From NCBI GenBank assembly GCA_951406725.2, contig OX597822.1:107074001-107138000 (forward strand): a stretch of DNA of 64,000 nucleotides, in the 5' to 3' direction. Shown one piece after another: positions 17,378-62,133 of the stretch (position 1 is its first letter; every line of letters starts with the position of its first letter). The notes under the pieces are model-generated. The model had not been told where the DNA came from and searched no databases. It saw only the letters and a program-made list of their open reading frames with translations. A program made the position numbers and the translations under genes. The DNA is from Octopus vulgaris. Taxonomy: Eukaryota.

Positions 17378-17550
17378 TGCATATGCTGAATGTGTTAAAA
17401 GATCCAATGACAAAGAGGTACCGAGTAGGTTTAATAAGGAAAAATCTGGTTAAGTAACTGAATGAGAATAAAGCAACGTATACTGCGTATAATTGAATTG
17501 ATTCTGAAATTATATACGTGGCTGTAAATTTTGATAAATAACGGTGACAG

Positions 17551-17875
17551 TAATGATAAAGATAATGGATGAAGATGAAGTAGATATAGCTGAACGGCTT
17601 GGTATTGATTGACAAGTTAATTATGACGGGTGAAAAACCAAAAGGCGTTTTCTATACGAGTGAACAAAAAGATTATGAATTTTTATTTGATGGATAAACA
17701 CTGCACAGGGAATGATCTAAGATTAATGATAAAGATAATGGATGAAGATGAAGTAGATATAGCTGAACGGCTTGGTATTGATTGACAAGTTAATTATGAC
17801 GGGTGAAAAACCAAAAGGCGTTTTCTATTACGAGTGAACAAAAAGATTATGAATTTTTATTTGATGGATAAACAC
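17551..17875. repeat. ~150-bp local tandem duplication
   Basis: taatgataaagataatgg...gatggataaacac at 17551-17701 and 17724-17875, nearly identical. Confidence 0.93.
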
Positions 17876-18477
17876 AGAGAGGACAAACAAGGACAGACAA
17901 ACGGATTAAGTTGATTATATCGACCCCAGTGCGTAACTGGTACTTATTTAATCGACTCCGAAAGAATAAAAGGCAAAGTCGCCCTCGGCGGAATTTGAAC
18001 TGTGAACGTAGCGGCAAACGAAATAGCTATTTCTTTACTACCCACAAACAAGGACAGACAAACGGATTAGGTCGATTATATCGACCCCAGTGCGTAACTG
18101 GTACTTATTTAATCGACTCCGAAAGAATAAAAGGCAAAGTCGCCCTCGGCGGAATTTGAACTGTGAACGTAGCGGCAAACGAAATAGCTATTTCTTTACA
18201 ACCCACAAGGGGCTAAACACAGAGAGGACAAACAAGGACAGACAAACAGATTAAGTCGATTATATCGACCCCAGTGCGTAACTGGTACTTATTTAATCGA
18301 CTCCGAAAGAATGAAAGGCAAAGTCGACCTCGGCGGAATTTGAACTGTGAACGTAGCGGCAAACGAAATAGCTATTTCTTTACTACCCACAAGGGGCTAA
18401 ACACAGAGAGGACAAACAAGGACAGACAAACGGATTAAGTCGATTATATCAACCCCAGTGCGTAACTGGTACTTAAT
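17869..18477 (-). mobile_element. SINE-B 4-unit array
   Basis: Junctions gaaatag|ctatttc at 18026/27, 18187/88 and 18371/72. Confidence 0.93.
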
Positions 18478-19550
18478 TCGTAACTCTTTTTATAAACATA
18501 GTATATTTTCATTTATCTTCATAATATATAAACTATTGGATTTTATTTAACTTATATACCTCAACATATCATGAAACTCAGCTGAAATAAGTCGTAGAAA
18601 GTCGGTTTTTAGTCTCTTCCACTTCATTCGTACCCAAGACTAAATGCTTTCATAAATAGACACATTGCTTCACAATTTGTGTGATGCATTAACCTAAAGG
18701 ATTTTATTCACTAGTTATCAAATTTGCATTTTCCAGCAAATTTGAATCAACACTTGTCTATTTGAAGTAGAATAAATACTCTAAGAGAAAGTGTGTTGCT
18801 TGTTACACGGAACATGATGAATCGAAGCTAAAAAGCTTTTTGCGATTGCAATAACTTCGTTGTAAGCAACTTATTTCCTGACGACTCGAGGTTCCTAACC
18901 CCGATTAAATTCTAAATACTTTTAAACATATATACGTTCATATACTGAACTCATTAATTATTGAGCGGCGCTTTTTATATTTGACGTGACTTTAATTCCA
19001 AAGGAAACCGTAAAGAGGAAAATAATGTATCTCCGCATCAAATCTATTCAAATCAAGTACAAGACAGCCCTACACGACTCTTAGATATATCTTCCTACAT
19101 TATATTTTTCTATGTAGCCAAAGCAAGAAATAATCAAAGTATGATCAAAAGATCTTCGTATAATGCACGTTAATGGTTTTCAGTTGCTGGTTTAGATACA
19201 AGGTCACCCTTAAATAGAAAAGTCAACTAAGAAGATTTAATCTATAAAATATCAGTAAAAGCACTTGTCGTTAATCTCTAAAATGTTGCTTCGTTTCTTC
19301 ATGTATTCTTAGCCATGTCTTTCTCACAACGATACATAATGGTACGCTTTATAAGCTTTTTTTTTACCAAACTTTATCATTACTCACGCAAACACATACA
19401 TGCACACACAAAGTCGAGTAGGCGCATACTCACATAAGCATGCGCTAGCACACACACACACACACACATATTAAGCACATATATATACCTAAATACATTT
19501 ATATATATATACATATATATATATATATACATACATGTATATATACCTAA

Positions 19551-25333: not shown

Positions 25334-28300
25334 TTAATAGCACCACCTGGCGAAGTCTTTCAGTTCAGGATTTGGGCACCAAGGCCCATTCGAGCAGAGA
25401 GTTATTGTTTGCGGAGACATATCCGGGTGTGGATGGTTTGTCCGGTACTGTTTGAAGGAATTTGTCCAAAGACTTCTTGAATTTTGTGTGGTCAGTTTCT
25501 TTTTTTTGACGTGTCCTGGTGTAATGTTGAAGAGAGCGGGTCCAATTGAGGTGAAATAGTTGTGCCGTATTGTCGTTATGTGATGCGATTTAGATTTTTG
25601 TTGTGGACGGATGGCACGTGGTCCAAGTCTTGGATGCATTTTGAAGGTGATGCCAACATCATTCGGACAGTGCTGATGGAATATTTTCCACATCATACAG
25701 ATAATGTAGCGTTCACGGCGTCGTTGGAGTGAATACAATTTCAGCTTCTCTAGTCTACCCCAGTAGTCAAGGTCTGACATGCCATCTATCTTTTTTGTGA
25801 TTGACCTTTGGGGAGCTTCAATTCTCATAATATTTTGTTTTGTGTAGGGAGACCACAGTGGACAGCAGTATTCAAGGTGGGGTCGGGCAAAAGTGGAGAA
25901 GAGAAGGATAATAGCGTGGGAATCTCTCGACTGGAAGGTTCTGAGAATCCAGGAACACATTCTGCGGGCCATGTCAACTTTGCTGCTTATATGTGTAGCC
26001 CAGCTTATGTTGTTGTCCACTGTTACTCCCAGGTCTCTGATGTTGTTGGATGCCATGAGAATTTCTCCAGAAGGAAGAGAGTATGGGAGTTTCAGAGCGT
26101 CCTCCCTTCCAAAGTGGATCAGTTCGAATTTGTCTTCATTTAGCAACATGTTATTCTTTTCCGCCCATTGGACAACAGCTAGTAGGTCTGACTGAAGGTT
26201 TATTCGGTCATCCACGCCATTGATGACCTTCTGGAGCTTGGAATCATCAGCGAAGGTTCTGATGTTGCTGTGTTTGATGGTGTCAGTAATATCATTTATG
26301 TAGATGATGAAGAGAAGTGGGCCCAACACAGTGCCTTGTGGGACACCACTGCTGACTTTGGCTGGGCTGGATTTGACTCCTTCGACTACAACATGTTGGG
26401 TTCTGTTAGAGAGGAAGCACTTGATCCATTGCAGCAGCTTTCCAGTGACACCAATATTGGACAGCTTTCTCAGAAGGATCTTATGATCAACCCTGTCAAA
26501 GGCCTTGCTGAAATCAAGGTAGATGACATCAGTGTTGGAACCCTCTCCCAAGGCTCTCAAAATGTCATCAAAATGATGCAGTAGCTGCGTCAGGCAATCT
26601 CTCCCATTACGGAATCCATGCTGGTTGGGGTTCAGCATATTATGACTCTCAAGGAAGTGAGTCATACGCGATCTCAGCACCCTCTCAAATACCTTGATGA
26701 TATGAGAGGTGAGTGAGATTGGACGGTAATTCACGGCAAGCGATTTGTTTCCTTTTTTGAAAACTGGGATAACAGACTGGGATAGAAGGTCTTCTGGTAT
26801 ATATCCAGCATCCAATGAGTTCCGCCACAGATTGGCTAGAGGGAGTGCAAGTTGGTTTTGACACATCTTCAAGACACAAGCAGGGAACCTATCGGGACCT
26901 ACTGCTGAATTATGCTTCATTTCCTTTATTGCTGCTAAGACATCAGGAGCGCCAAATGTTATGTCCGATAAAGTGTATTGGGGAGTAACATCACTGATAC
27001 AGCCCAGATCAGTCATATCAGGATTGTTGAAAACAGAGCAATATTGTTTCTGCAATATTTCTCCCATGGTTTTGGCATTGTCTTGAAGAATACCATTTTC
27101 ATCAATCAGAGGGCCAACAGTAGAACCAGTGACTCTGTGTTTTTTTGCAAATGAAAAGAACACTTTGGGATTGAGTTTGATCTTCTCAATGGCCCAGGCC
27201 TCTTCAGCTCTTCGCTGACTATTGATGATAGACATCATGTTGTTTTGGAGTTTATGTTTTTTAATCTCTAGCGACGAGATGGGAGTCAGGTTGGTGTGTT
27301 GCTGTTGACAGTATTTCAGCATGTTGATCTTTTTGTTGATTCTTTTAATTTTCCTTATGAGAGATTTTCTATTTCTAGGGATTCGACACTTAGATTTGTT
27401 TGCAGATCTTAATGGGGTGTGTCTTGCACATATGTTCGTGATGGTGTCTACAAGTGACTGCCAGGACTTTTTGATGTTAGTGGGTGTGTATGTGTGCGTG
27501 AAGGACCAATCGACTTGTGCAAGATCATTATTGATCGCTTCCCAGTTTGCATTGTGGAAATCCATAGTGTCAAATGGATGAACAGGAGGGATGACATTTG
27601 TTTTGCATTTTGGCCAGTGAAATCTCAGATCACAGAGAACCATGTCATGGTCGGAGAGTAGGGTTTTCTCCACTGCAATATTGTGGATAGTATCAGTGTG
27701 ATTGCTGAAAATTAAGTCTAAGACGTTTTTGTGACATCTCGTTGGTTCGAGTACCAGTTGGGACAAGAAGAAGTCATCCATGAAGTCAAGAAGCGATTCC
27801 ACTGCCTCCCTGTCAGGGGTTGAGAGAGAAGAACCTGGCGGCAGACTGTTTGTAGACCAGTCAACCCCGGGAAGGTTGAAATCTCCCATCATTAAAATGT
27901 TGTCAGGTTGACACTGCTGAATGAAACACTTTATGCTGTTGAGGCATTCCTTGAAGCATGGTAGGGGCGTTTGGGGTGGTCTGTAGAGCCCAACTACTGT
28001 TAAGTTGTTGGTTTGACTGAATACAGCGACTGCTTCGCAGTATCCATTCGAAAATATGTTCATGGCTTCTGTTGAGAATGAATCATGGACATAAATGGCA
28101 GTCCCACCCTTTCTTCTGCCAACACGATCAGCACGAATGGTTTTGAAATTTTTAACTTTCACCTCGGCTTCCAAGTGGAGGTCACTAAGATGGGTTTCAG
28201 TGAGGACGAAGAAAGGGATGTGGTTTGGATGGGCCTCGACCCAGTCCTCCAGGAATCTTATCTTCCATTTTTGTGTATTGGTGGAAGGGCTGATGCCTTG

Positions 28301-28384
28301 GGCATTAAGCAGAAATGTTGAGGCGAGAGTGGATGGTTTTAATTGTTTTGGTGATTTGTTTATTTGATTGCTTTTTAATGGCAT
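25334..28384 (-). CDS. LINE ORF2p: APE endonuclease plus reverse transcriptase
   Basis: LTETHL, YRPP, MGDFN and SDH (APE); NYRPISLTS, YLDFSKAFDRVDH, SGVPQGTVLGPLLF and FADD (RT). Confidence 0.97.
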   Translation of the reverse strand: MPLKSNQINKSPKQLKPSTLASTFLLNAQGISPSTNTQKWKIRFLEDWVEAHPNHIPFFVLTETHLSDLHLEAEVKVKNFKTIRADRVGRRKGGTAIYVHDSFSTEAMNIFSNGYCEAVAVFSQTNNLTVVGLYRPPQTPLPCFKECLNSIKCFIQQCQPDNILMMGDFNLPGVDWSTNSLPPGSSLSTPDREAVESLLDFMDDFFLSQLVLEPTRCHKNVLDLIFSNHTDTIHNIAVEKTLLSDHDMVLCDLRFHWPKCKTNVIPPVHPFDTMDFHNANWEAINNDLAQVDWSFTHTYTPTNIKKSWQSLVDTITNICARHTPLRSANKSKCRIPRNRKSLIRKIKRINKKINMLKYCQQQHTNLTPISSLEIKKHKLQNNMMSIINSQRRAEEAWAIEKIKLNPKVFFSFAKKHRVTGSTVGPLIDENGILQDNAKTMGEILQKQYCSVFNNPDMTDLGCISDVTPQYTLSDITFGAPDVLAAIKEMKHNSAVGPDRFPACVLKMCQNQLALPLANLWRNSLDAGYIPEDLLSQSVIPVFKKGNKSLAVNYRPISLTSHIIKVFERVLRSRMTHFLESHNMLNPNQHGFRNGRDCLTQLLHHFDDILRALGEGSNTDVIYLDFSKAFDRVDHKILLRKLSNIGVTGKLLQWIKCFLSNRTQHVVVEGVKSSPAKVSSGVPQGTVLGPLLFIIYINDITDTIKHSNIRTFADDSKLQKVINGVDDRINLQSDLLAVVQWAEKNNMLLNEDKFELIHFGREDALKLPYSLPSGEILMASNNIRDLGVTVDNNISWATHISSKVDMARRMCSWILRTFQSRDSHAIILLFSTFARPHLEYCCPLWSPYTKQNIMRIEAPQRSITKKIDGMSDLDYWGRLEKLKLYSLQRRRERYIICMMWKIFHQHCPNDVGITFKMHPRLGPRAIRPQQKSKSHHITTIRHNYFTSIGPALFNITPGHVKKKKLTTQNSRSLWTNSFKQYRTNHPHPDMSPQTITLCSNGPWCPNPELKDFARWCY

Positions 28385-29315
28385 GTGTAGTGGGGTAATA
28401 GTGGTGGATGGCGGTGGGTGATAGCTCGGATGTTTTTTTCCAGTTCTTTTGCTAGATTCATTATAGCTAAAAAAGAGGAAGAAGAGGTGGTTTCCTGTCT
28501 AGGGAACCGCAGGTGACTGTGGCCGCGGCTATTTTTATGTGAGTGGTTATCTTTAAATGTCCGACGAGTCCCCGGGAGATGGGTAAAGGGGCAATCCCTG
28601 TGCAAACACAATCTGTCTCGCTGGGAATAGCGGCAGATTTGGGGATTCCTTGTTTGAGATATTGGTGGTTGTGGTGATGTTGTATTATGGTGGTTGCTGT
28701 TGTAGTTTGTGGGGATAGAGCGTTTTGTTCCAGGTAAATGGGTGAATTTGCAGTCTCTATCAGTGCACAGTCTATGGCGAAGAGAATATCGGCAAATGAT
28801 GGGGTTTCGAGTGGGTGTGTAGGTGCGTGTATGTGTGTGAGCTGTGAAAGGTGTAGATGATAGTTTGAAGTTTTGGCGACCTTTGTGACCTGTAGGAGGT
28901 AAATTCCTTGAGATAGCATTAGTAGTAGTAGCTGTAGTAGTAGTAGTAGTAGTAGGTAGAAGAGATGTTGACGGTGGTAATGATTGAGGAGGTCGATTCC
29001 AAGACAAAGATGTTTGTCGATATATAGTGGGAGTAGTACTAGTAGTAGTAAGCAGAGGAGATGGTGTTGACAATGATGATGATTGAGCTGCTGGGGCAGT
29101 GAAAGGAAGGGGTGGTGCTTCCTGCTGTGTGACCCTGATAACTGGGGGGTCAATCGTTTCATTTAGCAAATCAGCCATTGTAGATGAATCAAGGAGTGGT
29201 TCATCCTGTTGTTGTTGTTGAGGTTGTTGTTGTTGCCTCTGAGGTTGTTGCTGCTGAAGTTGTTGTTGTTGCTGTAACTGTTGTTGTTGTTGTTGTTGCC
29301 GCTGAGTTTGTTGTT
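28375..29315 (-). CDS. LINE ORF1p with poly-Q and two CCCH zinc fingers (N-terminus truncated)
   Basis: [19 protein letters not shown] and [19 protein letters not shown]; frame stays open upstream of Met 29178 as Q-rich sequence; overlaps ORF2 by 10 bp. Confidence 0.85.
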
Positions 29316-29342
29316 GTTATATATATATATATATTGTTGTTG

Positions 29343-31205: not shown

Positions 31206-31878
31206 CTTTTCCAAAAGTTCATTTACATCAATTTTGTATATCATTTTTTTCCCTTTCCGCCAACATATTTTAGGTTTTAACTAACCGAGCCGTTTCGCAA
31301 CACTTAACTTTAGAGATATTGATTTTCATTTGATGTTTCATCTCTTAAAATATTCCATACAAAAATTTACATATTAATCTCCATTGCAAATATACTCGGT
31401 GACCGAATGCCTATACCATATATGCTAAAATCTCATTACTATTCCTCCTTTTTGCCATATTTTGAGTATGCTACTTGAAAAAGCGTTTCTATGTATTCTT
31501 TTTATACCTTCGCTATACCTTTTTCTACCTTTTACAAAAAAAAAAAAAAAAAAAATACAGCAAAATCAGAAATTGAAGAAATAAAACGCAGCATATTCAA
31601 TACTGCTCCGCTTCATAAGCGGCCAATCAGCAGTATCGACCTACAGATTAAAATGGAAAGGTCTATTTAAATTTTAAAGTCACTGTCACTTTTAAAAAAC
31701 AAACAAAAACAAAAAAAAAATCGTGTACATAATCAAGCACGTGATTAAGAACTCTAAATATACACATATATACACACATAATCGCACGCGCGAATATATA
31801 TATGTGTGTCTGTGAGCGTGCGTGTAAATATATATGCATGCATGCATTTCCCACCTCAACACATGTATGTAAATGTAT

Positions 31879-32470
31879 GGCGGCGAGCTGGCAGAATCGT
31901 TTACACGCCGGGTGAAATGCGTAGCCGTCTTTCGTCTGTCGTTACGTTCTGAGTTCAAATTCCGCCGAGGTCGACTTTGCCTTTTATATCCTTTCGGGGT
32001 CGATTAAATAAGTACCAGTTACGCACTGGGGTCGATATAATCGACTTAATCCTTTGTCTGTCCCTGTTTGTCCTCTCTGTGTTTAGCCCCTTGTGGGTAG
32101 TAAAGAAATAGAAATAGGTATTTCGTCTGCCGTTACGTTCCGAGGTCGACTTTACTTTTCATCCTTTTGGGGCCGATAAATTAAGTACCAGTTACGCACT
32201 GGGGTCGATATAATCGACTTAATCCGTTTGTCTGTCCTTGTTTGTCTCCTTTGTGTTTAGCCCCTTGTGGGTAGTAAAGAAATAGGTATTTCGTCTGTCG
32301 CTATGTTCTGAGTTCAAATTCCGCCGAGGTCGACTTTGCCTTTTATATCCTTTCGGGGTCGATTAAATAAGTACCAGTTACGCACTGGGGTCGATATAAT
32401 TGACTTAACCCGTTTGTCTGTCCTTGTTTGCCTCCTTTGTGTTTAGCCCCTTGTGGGTAGTAAAGAAATA
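31879..32470 (+). mobile_element. SINE-B 3-unit array with one TSD
   Basis: Junctions gaaatag|gtatttcgtctg at 32117/18 and 32285/86; TSD tatgtaaatgta flanks the whole array. Confidence 0.93.
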
Positions 32471-32499
32471 TATATGTAAATGTACACATCCTGCGAGCA

Positions 32500-32794
32500 C
32501 GTGAAATATTGTTTAGGCTGTTGTATACACGATAGCAAGATCGAAGTTTCGACTCCCAGACTAGGCCTCAGGTTGTGTTCTTCAGTGAAACACTTCGCTT
32601 CACGTTGCTCCGGCAGGGGGTGGTGGCGATCCCTGCTGTACTCTTTCGCCACAACTTTCTCTCACTCTTTCTTCTGTAGGCCTGCTCGCTTAGCTAGCGG
32701 GATGGCGTCCTTTGAAGGCTGAAACAATGCATAGCGCATTGTGACCGGTGATGTGTAGCAACATCTGATAGCCTGGTCGGTCATGGTGATCCCA

Positions 32795-35007: not shown

Positions 35008-36278
35008 CACGAAGGAATACACAAAATTAACCGGAAGCGTTCTTTGTGGGACAAGCCCGTTGGAGTTCAGGCTTCTGCCGTTAGAAACATCGTGATGCGA
35101 CCCTCGGGCATTAGTATGCCGACCGGGGCCGTCGCGTGGAGTTGTATTGCCATGTAGTGCATCCTTGTTTTTGCAGTTGTTCTCCTCTGTTCATCAATTT
35201 TTACGATGTCTGGAACGAAGGGACAAAGTGCTTCCGTGAAATTTTGTTTCCTGCTGAGGAAAGCAGCGGCGGAACAATTGTCATGCTTCAAAACAACTCG
35301 CAAGGATGCTACCATGAGCAAAACGCAAGTTTACGAGTGGTTTTCACATTTTTAGGAATGGCTACTTTTTCCTCGAAGACCAACGTCGTTCAGGGCGACC
35401 TTTGACATCCCGAATGAATGAAACCGTCATGAGGATTGTCGCCGAAGAATTGAGGAACTTATAAATATGACTGATGTGTACTGGAGCGCCTCTCAAAGAA
35501 TTTTGAGCGAGGAATTGCGAATGAAAAGAATTGCAGCAAAATTTGTGCCTCACTTACACACAGAGAATCGAAAGCAGTCACGACTGAATGCGTGTCATGA
35601 CTGAAAAAAGAGATGGAAGTTGATCCGGACCTTTTCTTTCGAAGGTCATCACTGGTGACAAAAGCGGGTGCTATTTATGACAGGAATGACGTTGATTGAA
35701 GCATTCAATATTACCACGCCCACAAAATTACGTCAAGTGAAGTCTGTTGTCAAGACGATGCTAATTTATTTCAGCGATGCGAAAGGAATTGTCCACATAG
35801 TATTTGTTTCATTCTGGAACAAATATCTGTTAACCAAACATTTTACTTGGCAGTTCTGAAGCGTTTACAAGATGCCGTGAGACGAAAACGCCCTGACCAG
35901 TGGCAAAGTGGAGAGTGCTGGTTTCCTCAGAACAATACACCATCGCACACCGCCTTGAATATAAGTCAGTTTTTGATCGAAAATGGCATCACCCTGTTTC
36001 CCCCCCTATTCACCCGATCTTGCTCCCATCAACTTTTTTTGTCCCCACCGAAAACGTTTTGCAGATGTGGAAGAGGTGAAGAAAGAACGACGGAGGCGTT
36101 AAAAGGCATCACTTTACAAGAGTTCTAGGACTGCTTCGAACAGTGGCAAAGATGTCCGGGCCGAGGTATTGCTTCAAATGGAGAATACTTTGGAAGGCAA
36201 TAAAAGCGTAAACATCTAAAGCTAAATGAATGAAATAATATTGCAAAATTGCGGTTACTTTTGGGTACCCCCTCGTGC
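35007..36278 (+). mobile_element. Full-length decayed mariner with TIRs
   Basis: Ends cacgaaggaatacacaaaattaaccg and the reverse complement cacgagggggtacccaaaagtaaccg; transposase remnants FVPHL, VITGD, QNNTPSH and PYSPDLAP. Confidence 0.88.
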
Positions 36279-39270: not shown

Positions 39271-40675
39271 ATGTCTTTTGAAATTATTCACGAAAGTAGT
39301 GCTCTTGAGGAGAGCAATGTTAAAAAATTTTCTGAGGTAGCCGCAGTGGCTACCGAGAGCATTGACATCGATGTCAACCAGCTCGTCGAGCTATTTAAAA
39401 GAATGCAAGAGGAGGGTGGTGATGTTAAAATATCACTCTCCGCCAGTATCGTGGAGACCGAGAAGCGGACCGTAGTGTTTAAAACTTTCTGTCCATAAAG
39501 CAGAAGGTTCAAACACTTTGAAAAAAGCTCTATCGAGAAATGCCTGTCCCCGATTTGGAAGGACATCGTGTACGTCGCCAGGGGACGGGCATATGGCACT
39601 GTGGATGTCCGCTTCTCGGGGAAGAAATGGCCCGCGGGCATTCTGTGAACCCCCTAAAAACCAAGGAGGTGGTACTTTTTCCAAGCTATAGGGGACGCAG
39701 GACGTCCCGGGTCAGGATTGTAGAAGCCCCGCCGGAAGTAGATCCGGTAGAGGTAGTGGCCGCCCTATTATATAAAAGGGCGGACAAAATAAAAATGCTA
39801 GAAGTAACATGCTCTACCCCTCGATTTTGGCTCGGGTGTAACATTAATATATTAATTCAAGGAACAGCGGAAGACCTGCAGCACCTTCCTGAGAGGGTGC
39901 TCGTGGGCGAGAACGTAGCCCTCAGGGTACAGGTCGAAGGCCGAAAACTCACCTGTTACGCCTGCGGCAAAAGGGCCACATTCGTGTAGACTGTCCAGAC
40001 AAGCAAAAGAAACCGCAGACACCAGGCCCCTCAGATAATAAAAAAGTCCCTACCCTTGCAAACACACCTACCCCTACAAAAGCAAAAAAAATCCCACTCC
40101 TGCTGTTACGGTGCCAACCCCAAAACAGACTGAAGAAAAAACCCAGCCCTCGCACTCACAAACCCCTACACTATTAAAACCTCTCACCCCCCTAAAAACT
40201 GCGGCGCCTATCGAACAAACTATTGCTACCCCAGACGATACCATGGAGGTATCAGAGGGGGGATTTACACCAGTTCGTAAAAGAATTCGTGCAGCATCCC
40301 CGTCCACATCCCCTACAAAAAATAATAAAAACAAAGACACACCACAGACACGAAAAAAAAAATCCCGCTCAACTGGCCCAGAAAAAGAAGACAAAAAAAA
40401 AAAATAAACTCATATTAATTGAATTCGACACACAAGAAAAATACATAAACGATATTGTGGTTCAGCATCAGTCAGCAAGACTGTACAACAAATACAAAGA
40501 TCGAAATAGACACGCGTGGATTGCGGAAACAACGTTCAAACAATTAAAAGACAGACACCCAAACGCCATCCGGCATATCGCGAACTTGCCGGACTATCTG
40601 AAGAAAGAGGAGAAAGAAGGGGCCCACAAACGTGTGGTGAGGTCGGCCCCCACCTCTCCAACGAAATGTAAGTAG
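39271..40675 (+). pseudogene. Tx1 ORF1 (gag-like, CCHC knuckle), frameshifted
   Basis: Consecutive ORF fragments; CYACGK/GHIRVDC knuckle spans a frameshift near 39970; K/P/T-rich C-terminus. Confidence 0.8.
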
Positions 40676-40692
40676 AACTTTTACTTTTTGTA

Positions 40693-43600
40693 ATGGCTTC
40701 GCTTAACCTTGGTTGTTTAAATGTGCGTGGTCTGAGTTCGAAGTGGAAGCAGGCTTGTTTCCTCGACGACCTCAGATCACATGATATACATGTGATGGTT
40801 GCTACAGAGACCAAGCTGGACAGCCTACAAACCTTCTCGCCTCTCCTGAATGGCTACGAGAAAATCATGTCTCCTGGCCAGACCGGATGGCGAGGGGGCG
40901 TAGTGGTACTGATCCGTAAAGACTTGGCTCTACAGACAAGTACAGTCTATGTAGACCCAGAAGGTGGGCTGGTCGTCCTTGATGTGACATACAGCAGTAA
41001 GGCCTTCAGGTTGATCGGACTCTATGCACCTTGTGCTAGAGGTTTCCAAACTGATTTTTATCGGCGCCTAGAGGGCTTTCTCGTAACGTCGAAGACTTTA
41101 GTGATATTAGGGGACTTTAATGCTATCGTTGACGTACACATCGATAGCGTTGGCTCGATCTATAGGAAAGTGAACTCACGTCTCGTGGATCTGCTTAAGC
41201 GGTTTCAGCTGGCAGATCGTTACAGACTTGACCATCCGAACGTCCCAGAGTGGACCTGGATGAGTGGCGACGGAAGGTTCAAGTCTTATCTAGACAGGAT
41301 AGTGATAAGAACTAGAGATAAGTCTAGTTTTAGTTGTCCACAGCTCGTCCAGGTGCCCTATACTGACCATAGAATGGTCACGTGTAGACTGGACATAGAT
41401 AGCACACTTAAGATAGGAACCGGCTACTGGAAGCTGAACAAGTCTATTTTGACACGCGAGGCATACCGTAGCCGGATTAAGGTGTTAGTGCAGAGGGCGT
41501 TAACCGGAGCCGTGGTTAATAACCGGTGGTGGTTCACCCTCAAAAGAGCCATTCGATTCGAGTCCATTAGATTTAGTAAACAACTAAGACTAGATAGGGC
41601 TAGAATAGAAGGGCAACTAGTTAAGAACTTAGAGGAGACGTTGAGGTTGGGCTCTGCATCTCACATTTTAGCGGCGAGAACGGCATTAGACCGTCACCTC
41701 AAAACCAAACATGAGGGATGTAGAGTCCGGGCTAAAGTACGAGCATTGGGCCGTGAGGGAATTAATGTTGCCGGATGGGCCCGTACGATAGAAACACAGC
41801 GTGGAAACGATGCCACAATTGGGTCTCTTGTTGATGAAAACGTATGCACGATCAAGAAGCGGGACGAGATGTGAGGCACTTCACAAGCACTTCGCCGAGT
41901 TGTTCGGGAGGTGCGGGACGCTGGATCATGGTGAGGCCCTTAGGGACTTCCTGTCTGGTGGCCCGCGCCTCTCGACACGAGAGGCTGAGTGCTGTGAGGG
42001 GCCAATCACAGCCGAGGAAGTAATCGAGGTGTTGGGCAAGTGCCAGACTTGTTCGGGCACCTGCTGGCTAGCGTCTACGCCAACTGGCGGCAGAATGGGA
42101 GAATTCCCAAGTCTGCGAACCGGGGGGCGGTGACGTTGATCAGGAAGGACCCGAACAAGGGGGACGAGATAGGGAACTTCAGGCCCATAACTCTGTTAAA
42201 CACAGAGTTAAAGATTCTGGCCAAGGTGCTAGCAAAAAGGTTGGCGCGGGTCGTGGACAAACTTGTCGGGGAAGCGCAAACGTGCGCTATCCCCGGCAGA
42301 ACGATCCACGACAATCTCCACCTTATACGCTACTCCTTAGAGAGGGTGGGGAAGCTTTCTGGCGCAGGGGGAGCACTGGTACATTTAGACCAGTCCAAAG
42401 CATTTGATAGGGTCGACCATCGGTACCTGGCGGCGGTCCTCGGAGAGGCTGGCCTAGGCCCGACCTTTCGAGGTTGGATCGCTGCTTTGTATAGCGACAT
42501 CGAGTCTGTAGTCAAGGTGAACGGTTCCTTTTCGAAGCCGTTCAGGATCGAGCGTTCAGTTCGTCAAGGGTGTCCCCTGTCCTCGCTCCTATACGTATTG
42601 GCTCTTGAGCCTTTGCTGCGGAAGTTGGAGGCACTAGGGGGCGCGCCGCATGATCTATGGTGTGGAAGAGGAGCTACGGCGTATGCGGATGACACCTCCA
42701 TCATCGTGGCAGACGAAGGCTAGCTTCCAGTGGTGGAAGAGGCCATCAAAAGCTACGAGGCGGTGGCAGGAGCAAAGGTTGACAAGGACAAGTCGGTCGG
42801 TTTGCAACTCGGCACCTGGAGAGGCAAGCCGATGCCGTCCAATAACGTCGTAGGGCGTTGGACGGAAGGTCCTGTTAAGCTGCTCGGAGCCTGGTTCGGG
42901 TCAGACCTCCAGATTGAGAAAAATTGGAGTGAGGTGGCCAACAAGGTGACCGCTCTAACCCAGACCTGGTCTGGGCGGGCGTTATCCCTGCTAGGGAAGG
43001 CGGAGGTGGTGCAGATGTTTATAGCATCAGTAATCACCTACCGTCTGACCGTGGTGCCTTGCCTCGGTTTGTGGCTGAACAAGTTGGAGAGAATCCTTTT
43101 CCGATTTTTGTGGAAAGGAGGAAAGCCACTTGTAAAGCGCTCTGTCTGCTGCCAGAAACCGCTAAAGGGTGGGCTAGGGATGCCTTGGCTGAGGATGCGA
43201 AAACTCGCGTTAAGGTTGAGGCACCTCTGGCTTTACCTGGATGGAGAGCAGGTGTGGTCGCCGCACGTCCGGTTCTACCTTCCCCAGTTAACATCCCTAA
43301 CGGACATCGGTGCATGGATCAAGCGGAGACCTAAACTGAGTGAATGGCATTTGGAGTGCCGTCAGGCGCTCCAGCTACTATCTCGGGTGGGCAACGCCGG
43401 CAACAGGAGTTCCACCACGGAATTCTATAGCGGGTTAGTGGAGATTAAGTCCGAAGACGCCTTGGGGGAGACCCTGGGCTACGATGAAAATCAGTTGGTC
43501 AACCTGTTCCGGAGGACGTTCGGGCCGGGGTATCTGGATAATTACCAGAAATCCCTGGCCTGGCAGTGTTTCCGTGCGGCTTTACCTGTTCGCGACAAGC

Positions 43601-44034
43601 TGTCAAGGCACGGTAGTGCCGTCTCGCCGACATGCCCGCGATGTGAGCAGGATAGGGAGACCGTCTTGCACGCATTCGTGGAGTGTCCGGAGTTATCGGG
43701 ACTCATAGCTTTTGTTGAACAACTGTTGTCAGTGATGGGAAGAGTACAGCTATCAGCTGAGTCTATCATCGAGATTGTGCCGCCCCCTTTCCTTATCAGG
43801 GAAAGAAAGGCTTGTTTTTTCTGTGTAGTAGCCATACTGAAAGAAACAGTATGGAAGACGCGTACGAAAGGTATAGTGACAGGCACCTTTGTCTCCGACC
43901 AGGGGTTGATTAACTATTTTAGTTACCACCTCAGTAGCAAAATCAGGCTGGAGAAGAGGTGTCTGTCACGAGATATGTTTGTCAAAAGATTGAAGCCTGT
44001 GGCATACAAGATGGGTATGTTTGGCACCAGGTAA
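40693..44034 (+). pseudogene. Tx1 ORF2 (APE, RT and C-terminal zinc knuckle), disrupted
   Basis: LNVRGL, GDFN, YTDH, GYWKLN; FRPITLLN, DQSKAFDRV, RQGCPLS, YADD; CPRC..ETVLHAFVEC; breaks at ~41870, ~42040 and a stop at 42721. Confidence 0.95.
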
Positions 44035-48985: not shown

Positions 48986-49195
48986 ATTCATACTTTATCC
49001 CACTCAAAACATATCTTGAGGGCCACATTTTCTAATGTATCATTTTTTAAGACAGTAGTATGTAATGTGCAGAAGATTTGGCTGCTGTTTCTAACTAGTC
49101 ATGTTACGATAAAGACGCTCTGTCTTCAACTATCTCTATCTCGTTGGTTCTCGGTGACATCTAAAGGCAAACAAGAGTTATCAGTGCTATATATA

Positions 49196-49778
49196 TTTCT
49201 TTACTACCTACAAGGGGCTAAACAAGGAAAGACAAAGGTATTAAGTCGATTACATCGACCCCAATGCGTAACTGGTACTTAATTTATCAACCCCGAAAGG
49301 ATGAAAGGCAAAGTCGACCTCGGCGGAATTTGAACTCAGAACGTAACGACAGATGAAATAGCTGTTTCTTTACTACCCACAAGGGGCTAAACACTGAGAG
49401 GACAAACAAGGACAGACAAACGGATTAAGTCGATTATATCAACCCAAGTGCGTAACTGGTACTTATCTAATCGACCCCGAAAGGATGAAAGGCAAAGTCG
49501 ACCTTGGCGAAATTTGAACTCAGAACGTGGCTGCAGACGAAATACCTATTTCTTTATTACCCACAAGGGGCTAAACACAGAGGGGACAAACAAGGACAGA
49601 CATAGGTATTAAGTCGATTATATCGAACCCCAGTGCGTAACTGGTACTTAATTTAATCGACCCCGAAAGGATGACAGGCAAAGTCGACCTTGGCGGAATT
49701 TGAACTCACAATGTAACGCAGACGAAATACCGTAAAGCATTTCGCCCGGCGCGCTAACGTTTCTGCCAGCTCGCCGCC
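49196..49778 (-). mobile_element. SINE-B 3-unit array with TSD
   Basis: Junctions at 49361/62 and 49545/46; TSD tatcagtgctRtata at 49179-49193 and 49781-49795. Confidence 0.93.
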
Positions 49779-56540: not shown

Positions 56541-57805
56541 GGGTTTGGACCAAATAATGGAAACTCCTTGCATCATAATTCTGAATTATCTACCAAACTG
56601 TCAAAAGCTTTTTTATTTTTATGTTTTTTGATTTATTAGTGTTGCTTAATATGTTTTGCTAAAATTACTGTTCCTTTTCAGATATCATCAGAAAAACGTA
56701 ATTAAAATTCATTAAAATGTCAGACCTATTGGACTTTCAAAGAGGTCAAATTGTTGGTGCTCGTATGGCAGGCGCTAGCGTAACGAAAACAACCGAAATG
56801 TTTGGTGTATAAAGAAGTACTATCTCGAAAGTAATGACAGCCTTTGAGAAAGAGAGAAAAACCTCCTCGTCGAAACAAAAATCCGGAAGAAAGCCAAAAC
56901 TTTCAGATAGGGACCTTTGGACTCTTACGCGAATTGTTAGAAAGGATAATAAAAGTACAACTCCCAAAAATTTCTTAGAGCTTAATGACCACCTTGAGAA
57001 CCCAGTTTCCGCAAAAACTGTTCGCCGCGAGCTGCACAAAGCCGGATTTTACGGGAGGGCTGCATTCAGAAAACCACTATTTTCAAAAACAAACGCTGCA
57101 AAGCGTTTAGAGTGTAGTAGAAGCCTACAGAATTGATCCCTAGAGCAGAGGAAGATTATTATTTTCTCGGACGAATCATCCTTTACCTTATTTCCGACCA
57201 CCTACCGAGTATATGTCAGGAGGCAGCCAAAAGAAGCATGTGATTCAGACTGCCTTCTTCCAACTGCTAAATATGTAGGAGGATCTCTGTTGATCTAGGG
57301 GAGGGGGGCTATATCTTGGAAATCTGCCGGCTCAATGGCTTCCCTTCATGGTAGAATTGATAGTCAAGTCTATTTAAGCATTTTATCTGATCAAATTCAT
57401 CCTATGGTTGCGGAAATGTTTCCAGAAGGAAACGCAATCTTTCTGCATGATAATGCACCAATTTACAAAGCTAAAGTTGTTACTGAATGGCACGAGGAAC
57501 ATTCTAGTGAAGTGGAACATCTCATATGGCCACCACAGTCTCAAGATCTCAATATTATAGAAAATTTATGGTGCATTTTAGAAAAATATGTAAGGAGTCG
57601 ATATCCTCCACCATCATCACTACAAGAACTGGAGACTGTTTTAGCTGAAGAATGGACAAAACTTACTTTGGAAACAATTCAGACTGTGTACGAGTCCATA
57701 CCTCGTAGAATCCAAGCTGTAATTACTGCCAAATGCGGTCCTACCCCATATTAAAATAAATTTATTTGAAACGTTAAGGTGTTTCAATTTTTTGTCGAAC
57801 CCCTC
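56539..57805 (+). mobile_element. Full-length Tc1-like (DD34E) transposon, inactivated
   Basis: TA TSD; TIRs gagggtttggaccaaataatggaaac and the reverse complement gaggggttcgacaaaaaattgaaac; transposase 56717-57754 with IFSDES, HDNAP and WPPQSQDLNIIENLW, several stops. Confidence 0.93.
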
Positions 57806-61068: not shown

Positions 61069-61469
61069 TATTTCTTTATTGCCCACAGGGGGCAACACGC
61101 AGAGGAGACAAACGGACTAGGTCGATTATATTGACCTCAGTGCGTAACTGGTACTTATCGACTCCGAAATGATGAAAGGCAAAGTCGACCTCGGTGGAAT
61201 TTGAACTCAGAACGTAGCGGCAGACGAAATACCTATTTCTTTACTACCCACAAGGGGCTAAACACAGAGAAGACAAACAAGGACAGACAAACGGATTAAG
61301 TCGATTATATCGACCCCAGTGCGTAACTGGTACTTATTTAATCGACCCCGAAAGGATGAAAGGCAAAGTCGACCTCGGCGGAATTTGAACTCAGATTTGA
61401 ACGTAACGGCAGACGAAATACCACTAAGCATTTCGCCCGGCCTGCTAACGTTTCTTCCAGCTCGCCTCC
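61069..61469 (-). mobile_element. SINE-B 2-unit array
   Basis: Junction gaaatac|ctatttc at 61232/33. Confidence 0.92.
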
Positions 61470-61940: not shown

Positions 61941-62133
61941 TGGCACAAGGACAGCAATTTTGTTGAAGGATGTCAGCCGATTACATCGAACCCTGTGTTC
62001 AACTGATACGTAATTTATCGATCCCGAAAGGATGAAAGGCAAAATAGACATAGGCGGAATTTGAACTCAGAACGTAAAGACGGACAGAACGCTGCTAAGT
62101 ATTTTGCCTGGCGTGCTAACGATTCAGCCAGCA
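61941..62133 (-). mobile_element. Older SINE-B with alternative tail
   Basis: SINE-B core with a ...ccttgtgcc tail. Confidence 0.75.

Follow-up and report, generated by a model that had tools for sequence, protein, structure and literature searches.

The window analysed here is a stretch of 64,000 nucleotides of Octopus vulgaris DNA (contig OX597822.1, positions 107,074,001 to 107,138,000 of the forward strand), and its focal feature is a head-to-tail array of three units of the short interspersed element SINE-B at 31879-32470, formed by a full-length unit, an extra GAAATA and two further units starting at nucleotide (nt) 48 (Table 1). This numbering is that of a 231-nt majority unit, built from 41 full-length copies, and it is at majority nt 48 that trailing units begin. 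The preliminary description had claimed six arrays in the window, and all six are present; the single target-site duplication (TSD) which it placed around the whole array at 7504, 31879 and 49196 was found in each case (at 7504 by eye), and the junction, said to recur 10 times, was recovered nine times by script and a tenth time in the 17869 array, where part of the tail ahead of it is deleted.

Table 1. Coordinates of the focal trimer, its parts and the other SINE-B arrays of the window.
Feature	Position	Strand	Remarks
TSD, upstream copy (14 bp)	31864..31877	+	TA-type target, not GGTAT; encloses the whole trimer
Unit 1, full-length SINE-B, nt 1-231	31879..32110	+	G43/C48 head; private insertion of 2 bp around nt 107
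A-box-like Pol III promoter element	31889..31899	+	by eye, against the consensus
Predicted long head hairpin	31909..31938	+	nt 31-43 paired with 48-60, loop 44-47
B-box-like Pol III promoter element	31951..31963	+	by eye
Extra GAAATA at junction 1	32111..32116	+	repeats the tail end
Unit 2, nt 48-231	32117..32284	+	lacks 16 bp; differs by 8-9% from units 1 and 3
Predicted 3' stem-loop, CUUGU loop	32259..32273	+	in every B unit, mirrored in family A
Unit 3, nt 48-231, mosaic	32285..32470	+	5' part resembles unit 1, 3' part unit 2
TSD, downstream copy	32471..32484	+	13/14 letters match the upstream copy
Seamless dimer	5402..5817	-	units 9% apart
Dimer, both units with deletions	7504..7860	-	TSD opens with (G)GTATT
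Four-unit array, lead unit 5'-truncated	17866..18478	-	internal units are local duplicates with perfect-palindrome junction
Seamless trimer with TSD	49194..49778	-	units 7-12% apart
Seamless dimer	61069..61469	-	units 10% apart; trailing unit more decayed

In the 7504 array, the bases following GGTATTT at the junction are deleted. A stretch of unique DNA, about 157 bp long, is locally duplicated at ~17550-17870 and adjoins the truncated end of the 17869 array. Elsewhere, the window holds, by our own reading, an open frame of 1,054 aa which appears to be CR1/L2-like (25334-28498, minus strand, with endonuclease-like and reverse-transcriptase-like motifs, and with an upstream frame at 28375-29316 on the same strand), an L1/Tx1-like element whose ORF2 is in three pieces (39522-44034, plus strand) and fragments of Tc1/mariner-like transposases (3470-3907, minus; 35700-36128 and 57299-57754, plus). 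Just downstream of the focal array, at 32550-32790, lies another high-copy repeat with very high read depth. Reads mapped to the focal array show that organisms B and C both have the SINE family in abundance, and they cover the unique flanks too thinly to reveal empty or shorter alleles; one contig of organism B has a SINE tail joined to the downstream flank of the array.

With G43 and C48, the head of focal unit 1 is, judging by these bases, of the donor type and has no GGTAT target; since this head is found together with a TA-type target, the array most likely entered its site as a multimer. The private 2-bp insertion of unit 1 is present in 2 of 421 units (focal units 1 and 3), and a rare 3' haplotype is common to units 2 and 3. 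This mosaic would be explained by a dimer which underwent one duplication and one conversion or, alternatively, by an insertion that joined seamlessly within a junction. The trimer contains T4 runs, unlike the majority unit, which is without any run of four T. These runs, and a mosaic structure that calls for additional events at the DNA level, count against the read-through model given below. The G43/C48 variant occurs in 22 of 96 monomers (window positions 31921 and 31926), changing U-G to G-C at the predicted closing pair of the head hairpin and also abolishing the GGTAT target; the predicted hairpin is, alone, not significant against shuffled sequences (z -0.45), and nt 48 is the first base past its loop.

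Concerning the identity of the element, its 231 nt and the 74,280 genome matches of its tail pattern lie within the SINEBase limits for a SINE (under 1 kb, at least 100 copies), and its copies are retroposed with variable TSDs, as SINEBase also specifies. The TSDs are mostly 11-19 bp long and were scored in 50 of 96 monomers and, among B-ended arrays, in 15 of 34; in full-length copies, nt 1 is often separated from the TSD by an additional AA. SINEBase describes SINEs as interspersed and not tandem; the loci here are dispersed, yet 15 of 26 unselected tails lead into another unit. It further asks for 60% identity or more to a tRNA, 5S or 7SL RNA along 60 nt; ARAGORN found 0 tRNA genes and Rfam gave no match up to E 10, the likeness to a tRNA being in A and B boxes recognised by eye. 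We take SINE-B to resemble an octopus tRNA-type SINE, possibly the same family as OK, OR1 and OR2, which were reportedly described by Ohshima and Okada in 1994, and its centre presumably resembles the Nin domain of Nin/Deu-domain SINEs. The SINEBase table and the repeat library of PMC13282606 may bear on the identity and prior description of the family. As regards the partner LINE, the 3' end of SINE-B was absent from the LINE of the window and from the 30 best PF00078 loci, which are CR1-like and RTE-like by our own reading, and, among the matches listed (100 of 568, and 30 of 30), a B tail behind non-SINE sequence belonged to deleted or truncated SINEs alone. The CUUGU stem-loop is probably a signal for the partner reverse transcriptase.

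Based on exact searches of the 2.8-Gb genome, the joint between a tail and nt 48 is real, genome-wide and far beyond chance: a 26-letter pattern spanning it has 25,199 exact matches and its reversed control 0, compared with 16 joints from tail to nt 1. The statement that arrays always rejoin at the same nucleotide holds in so far as nt 48 dominates, and is too strong in its "always", given that a second joint, from tail to nt 15, has 138 exact genome matches in one of its variants. In an unselected sample of 400 kb (40 stretches of 10 kb at fixed coordinates), the 26 SINE-B tails are followed by nt 48 in 11 cases, by nt 15 in 4 and by flanking DNA in 11. At one locus (L052:4232-4748) the joint consists of GGTAT and then a gap in the unit as far as about nt 64, and it is twice repeated, a locally duplicated variant joint.

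The preliminary description had also proposed that the junction is a near or perfect palindrome, which makes the RNA's 3' end complementary to the point of re-entry. The perfect form is confined to the 17869 array, in which the units are local duplicates of one changed junction, and the tail end of SINE-B is the reverse complement of nt 50-55. Target-primed copying requires a match of the RNA to the top strand, and the antisense nests which complementarity would yield were found once; moreover, the junction folds no better than shuffled sequences (z -0.33). The palindrome is incidental, and as a cause of the re-entry site it has to be given up.

The trailing units are not all SINE-B. An older sister SINE, family A (for instance at window 14843-15002, plus strand, and 61966-62132, minus strand), has nt 1-166 in common with SINE-B, a different tail and the same GGTAT word at nt 48 of its head, and in 40 of 102 seamless nt-48 arrays the last unit belongs to family A. 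A tree built from 129 A bodies, few of whose branches are well supported, contains a young A clade (support 85/96) made up of 56 trailing units and 10 free monomers in 66 rows; it holds 38 of the 51 A units behind the nt-48 joint and 18 of the 20 behind the nt-15 joint, and the other 13 of those 51 fall among old monomers. That A units lie outside the young clade, and that both joints occur inside it, implies that the fusion arose more than once. Trailing A units are more diverged (0.104 vs 0.044), a part of which is a fixed difference between the families, and trailing B units show no significant excess of age (0.040 vs 0.033, p 0.20, n 31). Compared with first B units, second B units have no fixed marks save nt 48, plus a shift at 219.

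The fixed joint is the insertion site of SINE-B itself. GGTAT placed 12-19 bases ahead of an exact SINE head occurs at 1,319 + 1,290 = 2,609 sites genome-wide, against 210 for the shuffled control word GATGT in the same placement, which is the commoner word in the 400-kb sample (816 vs 612). Since the word also opens the upstream TSD copy, it belongs to the target. Behind the tails, GGTA is present in 35 of 73 flank cases (pooled loci, some of which are missed nt-48 units), with a background of 0.25%, and the TSDs led by GGTAT at 30 inspected loci surround B monomers or whole arrays where resolved, with no A tails. The specificity lies wholly on the primer side of the nick. The GGTAT word also stands at nt 48 of the SINE-B head, and insertions at this point leave a canonical nest (old head, TSD from nt 48 to about nt 60, AA, the complete new copy and, starting at nt 48, the rest of the old one). 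There are 52 exact genome matches to such nests, with a TSD visible in most of 30 inspected, and two of them are unselected (L035 and L051). By eye, 10 clear and about 6 more probable GGTATT insertions inside heads were counted among the first 100 listed, and of 220 GGTATT sites 11 lie in heads and 10 in junctions; the word alone thus nearly explains the rate of insertion into heads, any homing to heads beyond the word being two- to threefold at most. Stacked heads (nt 1 to about 60 two or three times, followed by a full unit) were also seen at L075, L076, L089, L090 and L100, with the same 5' joint on at least five contigs.

Based on these data, we consider that the arrays are explained by self-nesting at GGTAT, re-copying of read-through multimers and later unequal exchange of DNA, a reading to which we give a probability of about 0.65. 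Its starting point, a preference for GGTAT which includes nt 48 of the element's own head and of the sister head, so that copies nest, is seen directly in the target word and in the canonical nests. What likely follows is that Pol III, starting from the new head, would read through the terminator-less tail into the remainder of the old copy, and that the partner reverse transcriptase would start at either tail; from the last tail it would yield a full unit plus a unit from nt 48, without the old head. Such a multimer would land inside one new TSD, and repeated nesting and re-copying would add units at the 5' side. Composites with their own TSDs, namely L015 (a full unit plus nt 48-76) and, by eye, the similar L018 and L073 (a partial old head in front of one full unit, ending at the first tail), indicate that junction-bearing templates get copied; among arrays with a short trailing unit, a TSD was scored in 1 of 4. 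Covariation between unit 1 and unit 2 over 92 arrays is faint (r 0.03-0.06, p 0.03-0.04), which fits many sources without proving them, and the same analysis caught no daughters descended from a shared composite. Compared with seamless arrays, canonical nests are few (1-2 vs 61 in the C1 set, 2 vs 4 in the unselected sample), so that composites must stay fertile over many rounds.

The longer arrays would then grow by unequal exchange. In a set of 98 arrays, from which duplicates were dropped by their last junction (removing at least L249), 63 of the 65 dimers join unrelated units, as do 14 of the 23 trimers, and near-identical units are found in 9 of 10 arrays of four or more; the long arrays seen come from one end of C1. 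Their middle units are uniform, their end units are distinct and there are gradients; a uniform middle between differing ends is the expected outcome of unequal exchange. The pattern is thus plain to see in arrays of four or more, and local DNA duplication by this mechanism is its likely source. L250 (positions 900-2900, C1 near 4.676 Mb) has 10 B units within 1% and an A unit last, and together with L249 and L306 it is a long, near-uniform array resembling a young SINE-derived satellite.

The last step of the proposed mechanism, in which the choice of target itself is inherited, is the weakest. The read-through bases behind the tail would pair with the nicked DNA and set the target word, which would be passed on from the source locus; the word could be heritable because the downstream TSD of each copy starts with it. 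In visual counts, which cover the beginning of C1 (p under 1e-11), the first 100 TG tails listed are followed by GGTA in 72 cases and by AGA in 1, and the first 100 CA tails by GGTA in 11, AGA in 37 and TATA in 17; the AGA word corresponds to the second joint, the one at nt 15. Among copies in TA targets, nt 129 is changed in 10 of 28 cases, against 22 of 357 (pooled and partly selected loci). The primer-side specificity and the lineage words fit priming by read-through bases, as in SART1Bm and R1Bm, where RNA bases annealing to the target steer priming (PMC7265360). Nevertheless, CA copies are older than TG copies (0.070 vs 0.047), so that successive partner enzymes account for the difference in words equally well, and the TSD asymmetry for an RNA-templated GGTAT, about 5/21 vs 1/25 by eye in a smaller first set, is 5/19 vs 5/36 when scripted with 30 extra loci (p 0.29). 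We propose only tentatively, and with rather less than even expectation, that SINE-B may be a self-guided retroposon, whose read-through bases pick the next site and whose choice is inherited; one lineage would have gained GGUAU at nt 48 and thereby aim at its own and sister promoters, the resulting loop would remake the joint and seed satellites, and G43/C48 would be an escape mutant.

Other explanations have to be weighed against the read-through model. The nt-48 insertion could be resolved seamlessly in place, with the overhang of the target (nt 48-60) or the whole old head pairing with the head of the new cDNA, which would account for the scarcity of nests with a leftover head and under which the focal order X-Z-X' could stem from an insertion that joined seamlessly within a junction; for R1, 5' joints guided by homology have been described (PMC2718515). 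This finishing predicts leading heads which are old heads with G48. However, among the leading heads of seamless arrays 21 of 102 have C48, much as in monomers (25 of 96, p 0.40), and among second units 1 of 102 has it (p 4e-6), so that leading heads are often C48, which argues against homology-guided joining. Additionally, the divergence of seamless-array heads tracks that of unit 1 (rho 0.38, p 0.018) rather than that of the last unit (0.12), whereas the old heads of nests track the last unit (0.59, p 0.01), with no difference between the two in total head divergence (p 0.52, 40 vs 9). The markers at nt 19 and nt 36 of the head are weakened, since the young A subfamily may share them, and the class "seam48t", mostly B-ended arrays with variant tails, was used for the head test alone. 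In-place joining is thus unlikely as the general route, and may apply to a minority share or to cases with the whole old head overwritten; of the first model in the preliminary description, sequence-directed re-insertion into an existing head stands, and the homology-guided 5' joining falls away for most arrays, their leading heads being of donor type. A founding event is a distinctly improbable source of the whole: one or a few ancestral dimeric masters, amplified by unequal crossover, would pass on the joint, as could be read from the concentration of A units behind the nt-48 joint in one young clade with few free monomers, and from the long arrays being local expansions. This sits badly with trailing units that are B, young A and old A, with fresh nests at exactly 48 and with second B units which have no fixed mark save nt 48 and the shift at 219, in addition to the faint covariation. 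A single ancestral dimer followed by crossover, which the preliminary description had named as the case against its proposal, does not fully agree with trailing units from several families and two joints, though most of the amplification is likely due to re-copied multimers together with unequal exchange.

The remaining explanations place the joining in the RNA. A reverse transcriptase which stalls at the head hairpin, at the first base past the predicted loop, and jumps to a second SINE RNA held by complementarity between tail and head, would yield young heads, unrelated units and a single TSD, i.e. the same final form. Nevertheless, 5' truncations are not piled at 48 (by eye, 6 in nt 44-56, none of them at 48, against 11 in 21-43 and 11 in 57-100), jumps at the 5' end are rare, and GGTAT in unique DNA, the TSD nests at 48, the agreement of the nt-15 joint with the AGA lineage and the old A trailing units are all left unexplained; the absence of a truncation cluster and the genomic target word make this explanation very doubtful. 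Rolling-circle copying of a circular 184-nt RNA, similarly to retrozymes, or repeated copying of one template, can claim that some long arrays are almost uniform, as in the ten units of L250. It is barely conceivable as the source of arrays whose dimers and trimers mostly join unrelated units, since neither circles nor re-copied single templates fit these, and even the uniform arrays keep distinct ends. The hammerhead core CTGANGA is absent on both strands of the units, while a non-LTR retrozyme has a hammerhead in each unit, and the identical units joined at the 5' end that define a concatemer from a single template are likewise not what is seen. The second model of the preliminary description, based on circular or template-jumped RNA, finds no support in these dimers, in the searches for hammerheads and Rfam matches or in the few joints to nt 1.

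If the GGTAT reading is correct, there is a direct and datable path from an interspersed SINE to composite SINEs and satellite-like arrays, and at least 25,000 joints permit a statistical treatment of what is usually deduced from a single founding event. If, in addition, the choice of target is inherited, the insertion preference of a non-autonomous element can evolve with the enzyme unchanged. On the practical side, SINE-B array loci will be wrongly split and wrongly aged when the repeats of this genome are annotated and dated.

Our literature search, which covered few subscription papers, found no paper on a SINE with its insertion word in its own head, nor on these arrays; the available parts of PMC4758252, PMC4824008 and PMC9795677 have nothing on arrays. 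The nearest published description found is that of the blood clam Scapharca broughtonii (PMC11481361), and SINE-derived satellites, complex SINEs, R1 and Penelope each share one step with the octopus arrays. In the clam, tRNA-type SINEs form TSD-(SINE)n-TSD multimers, attributed to unequal recombination, with a full head in the first unit, later units cut at a fixed head position and one TSD, very much as here. However, the clam arrays account for 3% of SINEs with high scores and their internal units are also 3'-truncated, whereas in the octopus about half of the tails are involved, the tails are complete and the joint is the element's own insertion word. The squamate SINE-derived satellites (sSat, PMC10702118) have uniform units of sub-SINE length and distinct end monomers, a likeness that applies to the long arrays: four or more uniform middle monomers, which define an sSat, are found in L250 and L249, and neither in the focal trimer nor at most loci. 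A subtelomeric position is a further defining trait of sSat. The sSat description consulted names no fixed self-insertion site, and the octopus arrays also differ in being mostly dispersed dimers and trimers of unrelated units. A limpet satellite is reported to derive from a Nin-SINE (PMC11121367). Complex SINEs (Alu, B1-dID; PMC3531059) are similar in that two SINEs fuse and are retrotransposed together, but they are treated as single founded families, while the fusion described here was apparently remade many times and is open-ended. Sequence-directed re-insertion also leads to head-to-tail arrays in the tandem R1 elements of Drosophila (PMC2718515); R1 and SART1Bm (PMC7265360) are nevertheless autonomous LINEs with a host target and units separated by a TSD, in contrast to a target of about five letters inside a non-autonomous element. 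The partial tandems of Penelope-like elements (PMC11167929) involve multimeric RNA, an internal start of reverse transcription and insertion into own sequence, and non-LTR retrozymes (PMC7761336) have tandem units of 150-300 bp; both carry hammerheads, whereas none was found in SINE-B, which has Pol III boxes and TSDs of 11-19 bp. Thus, what is found in the octopus is a set of known steps, combined in an unusual, self-feeding way.
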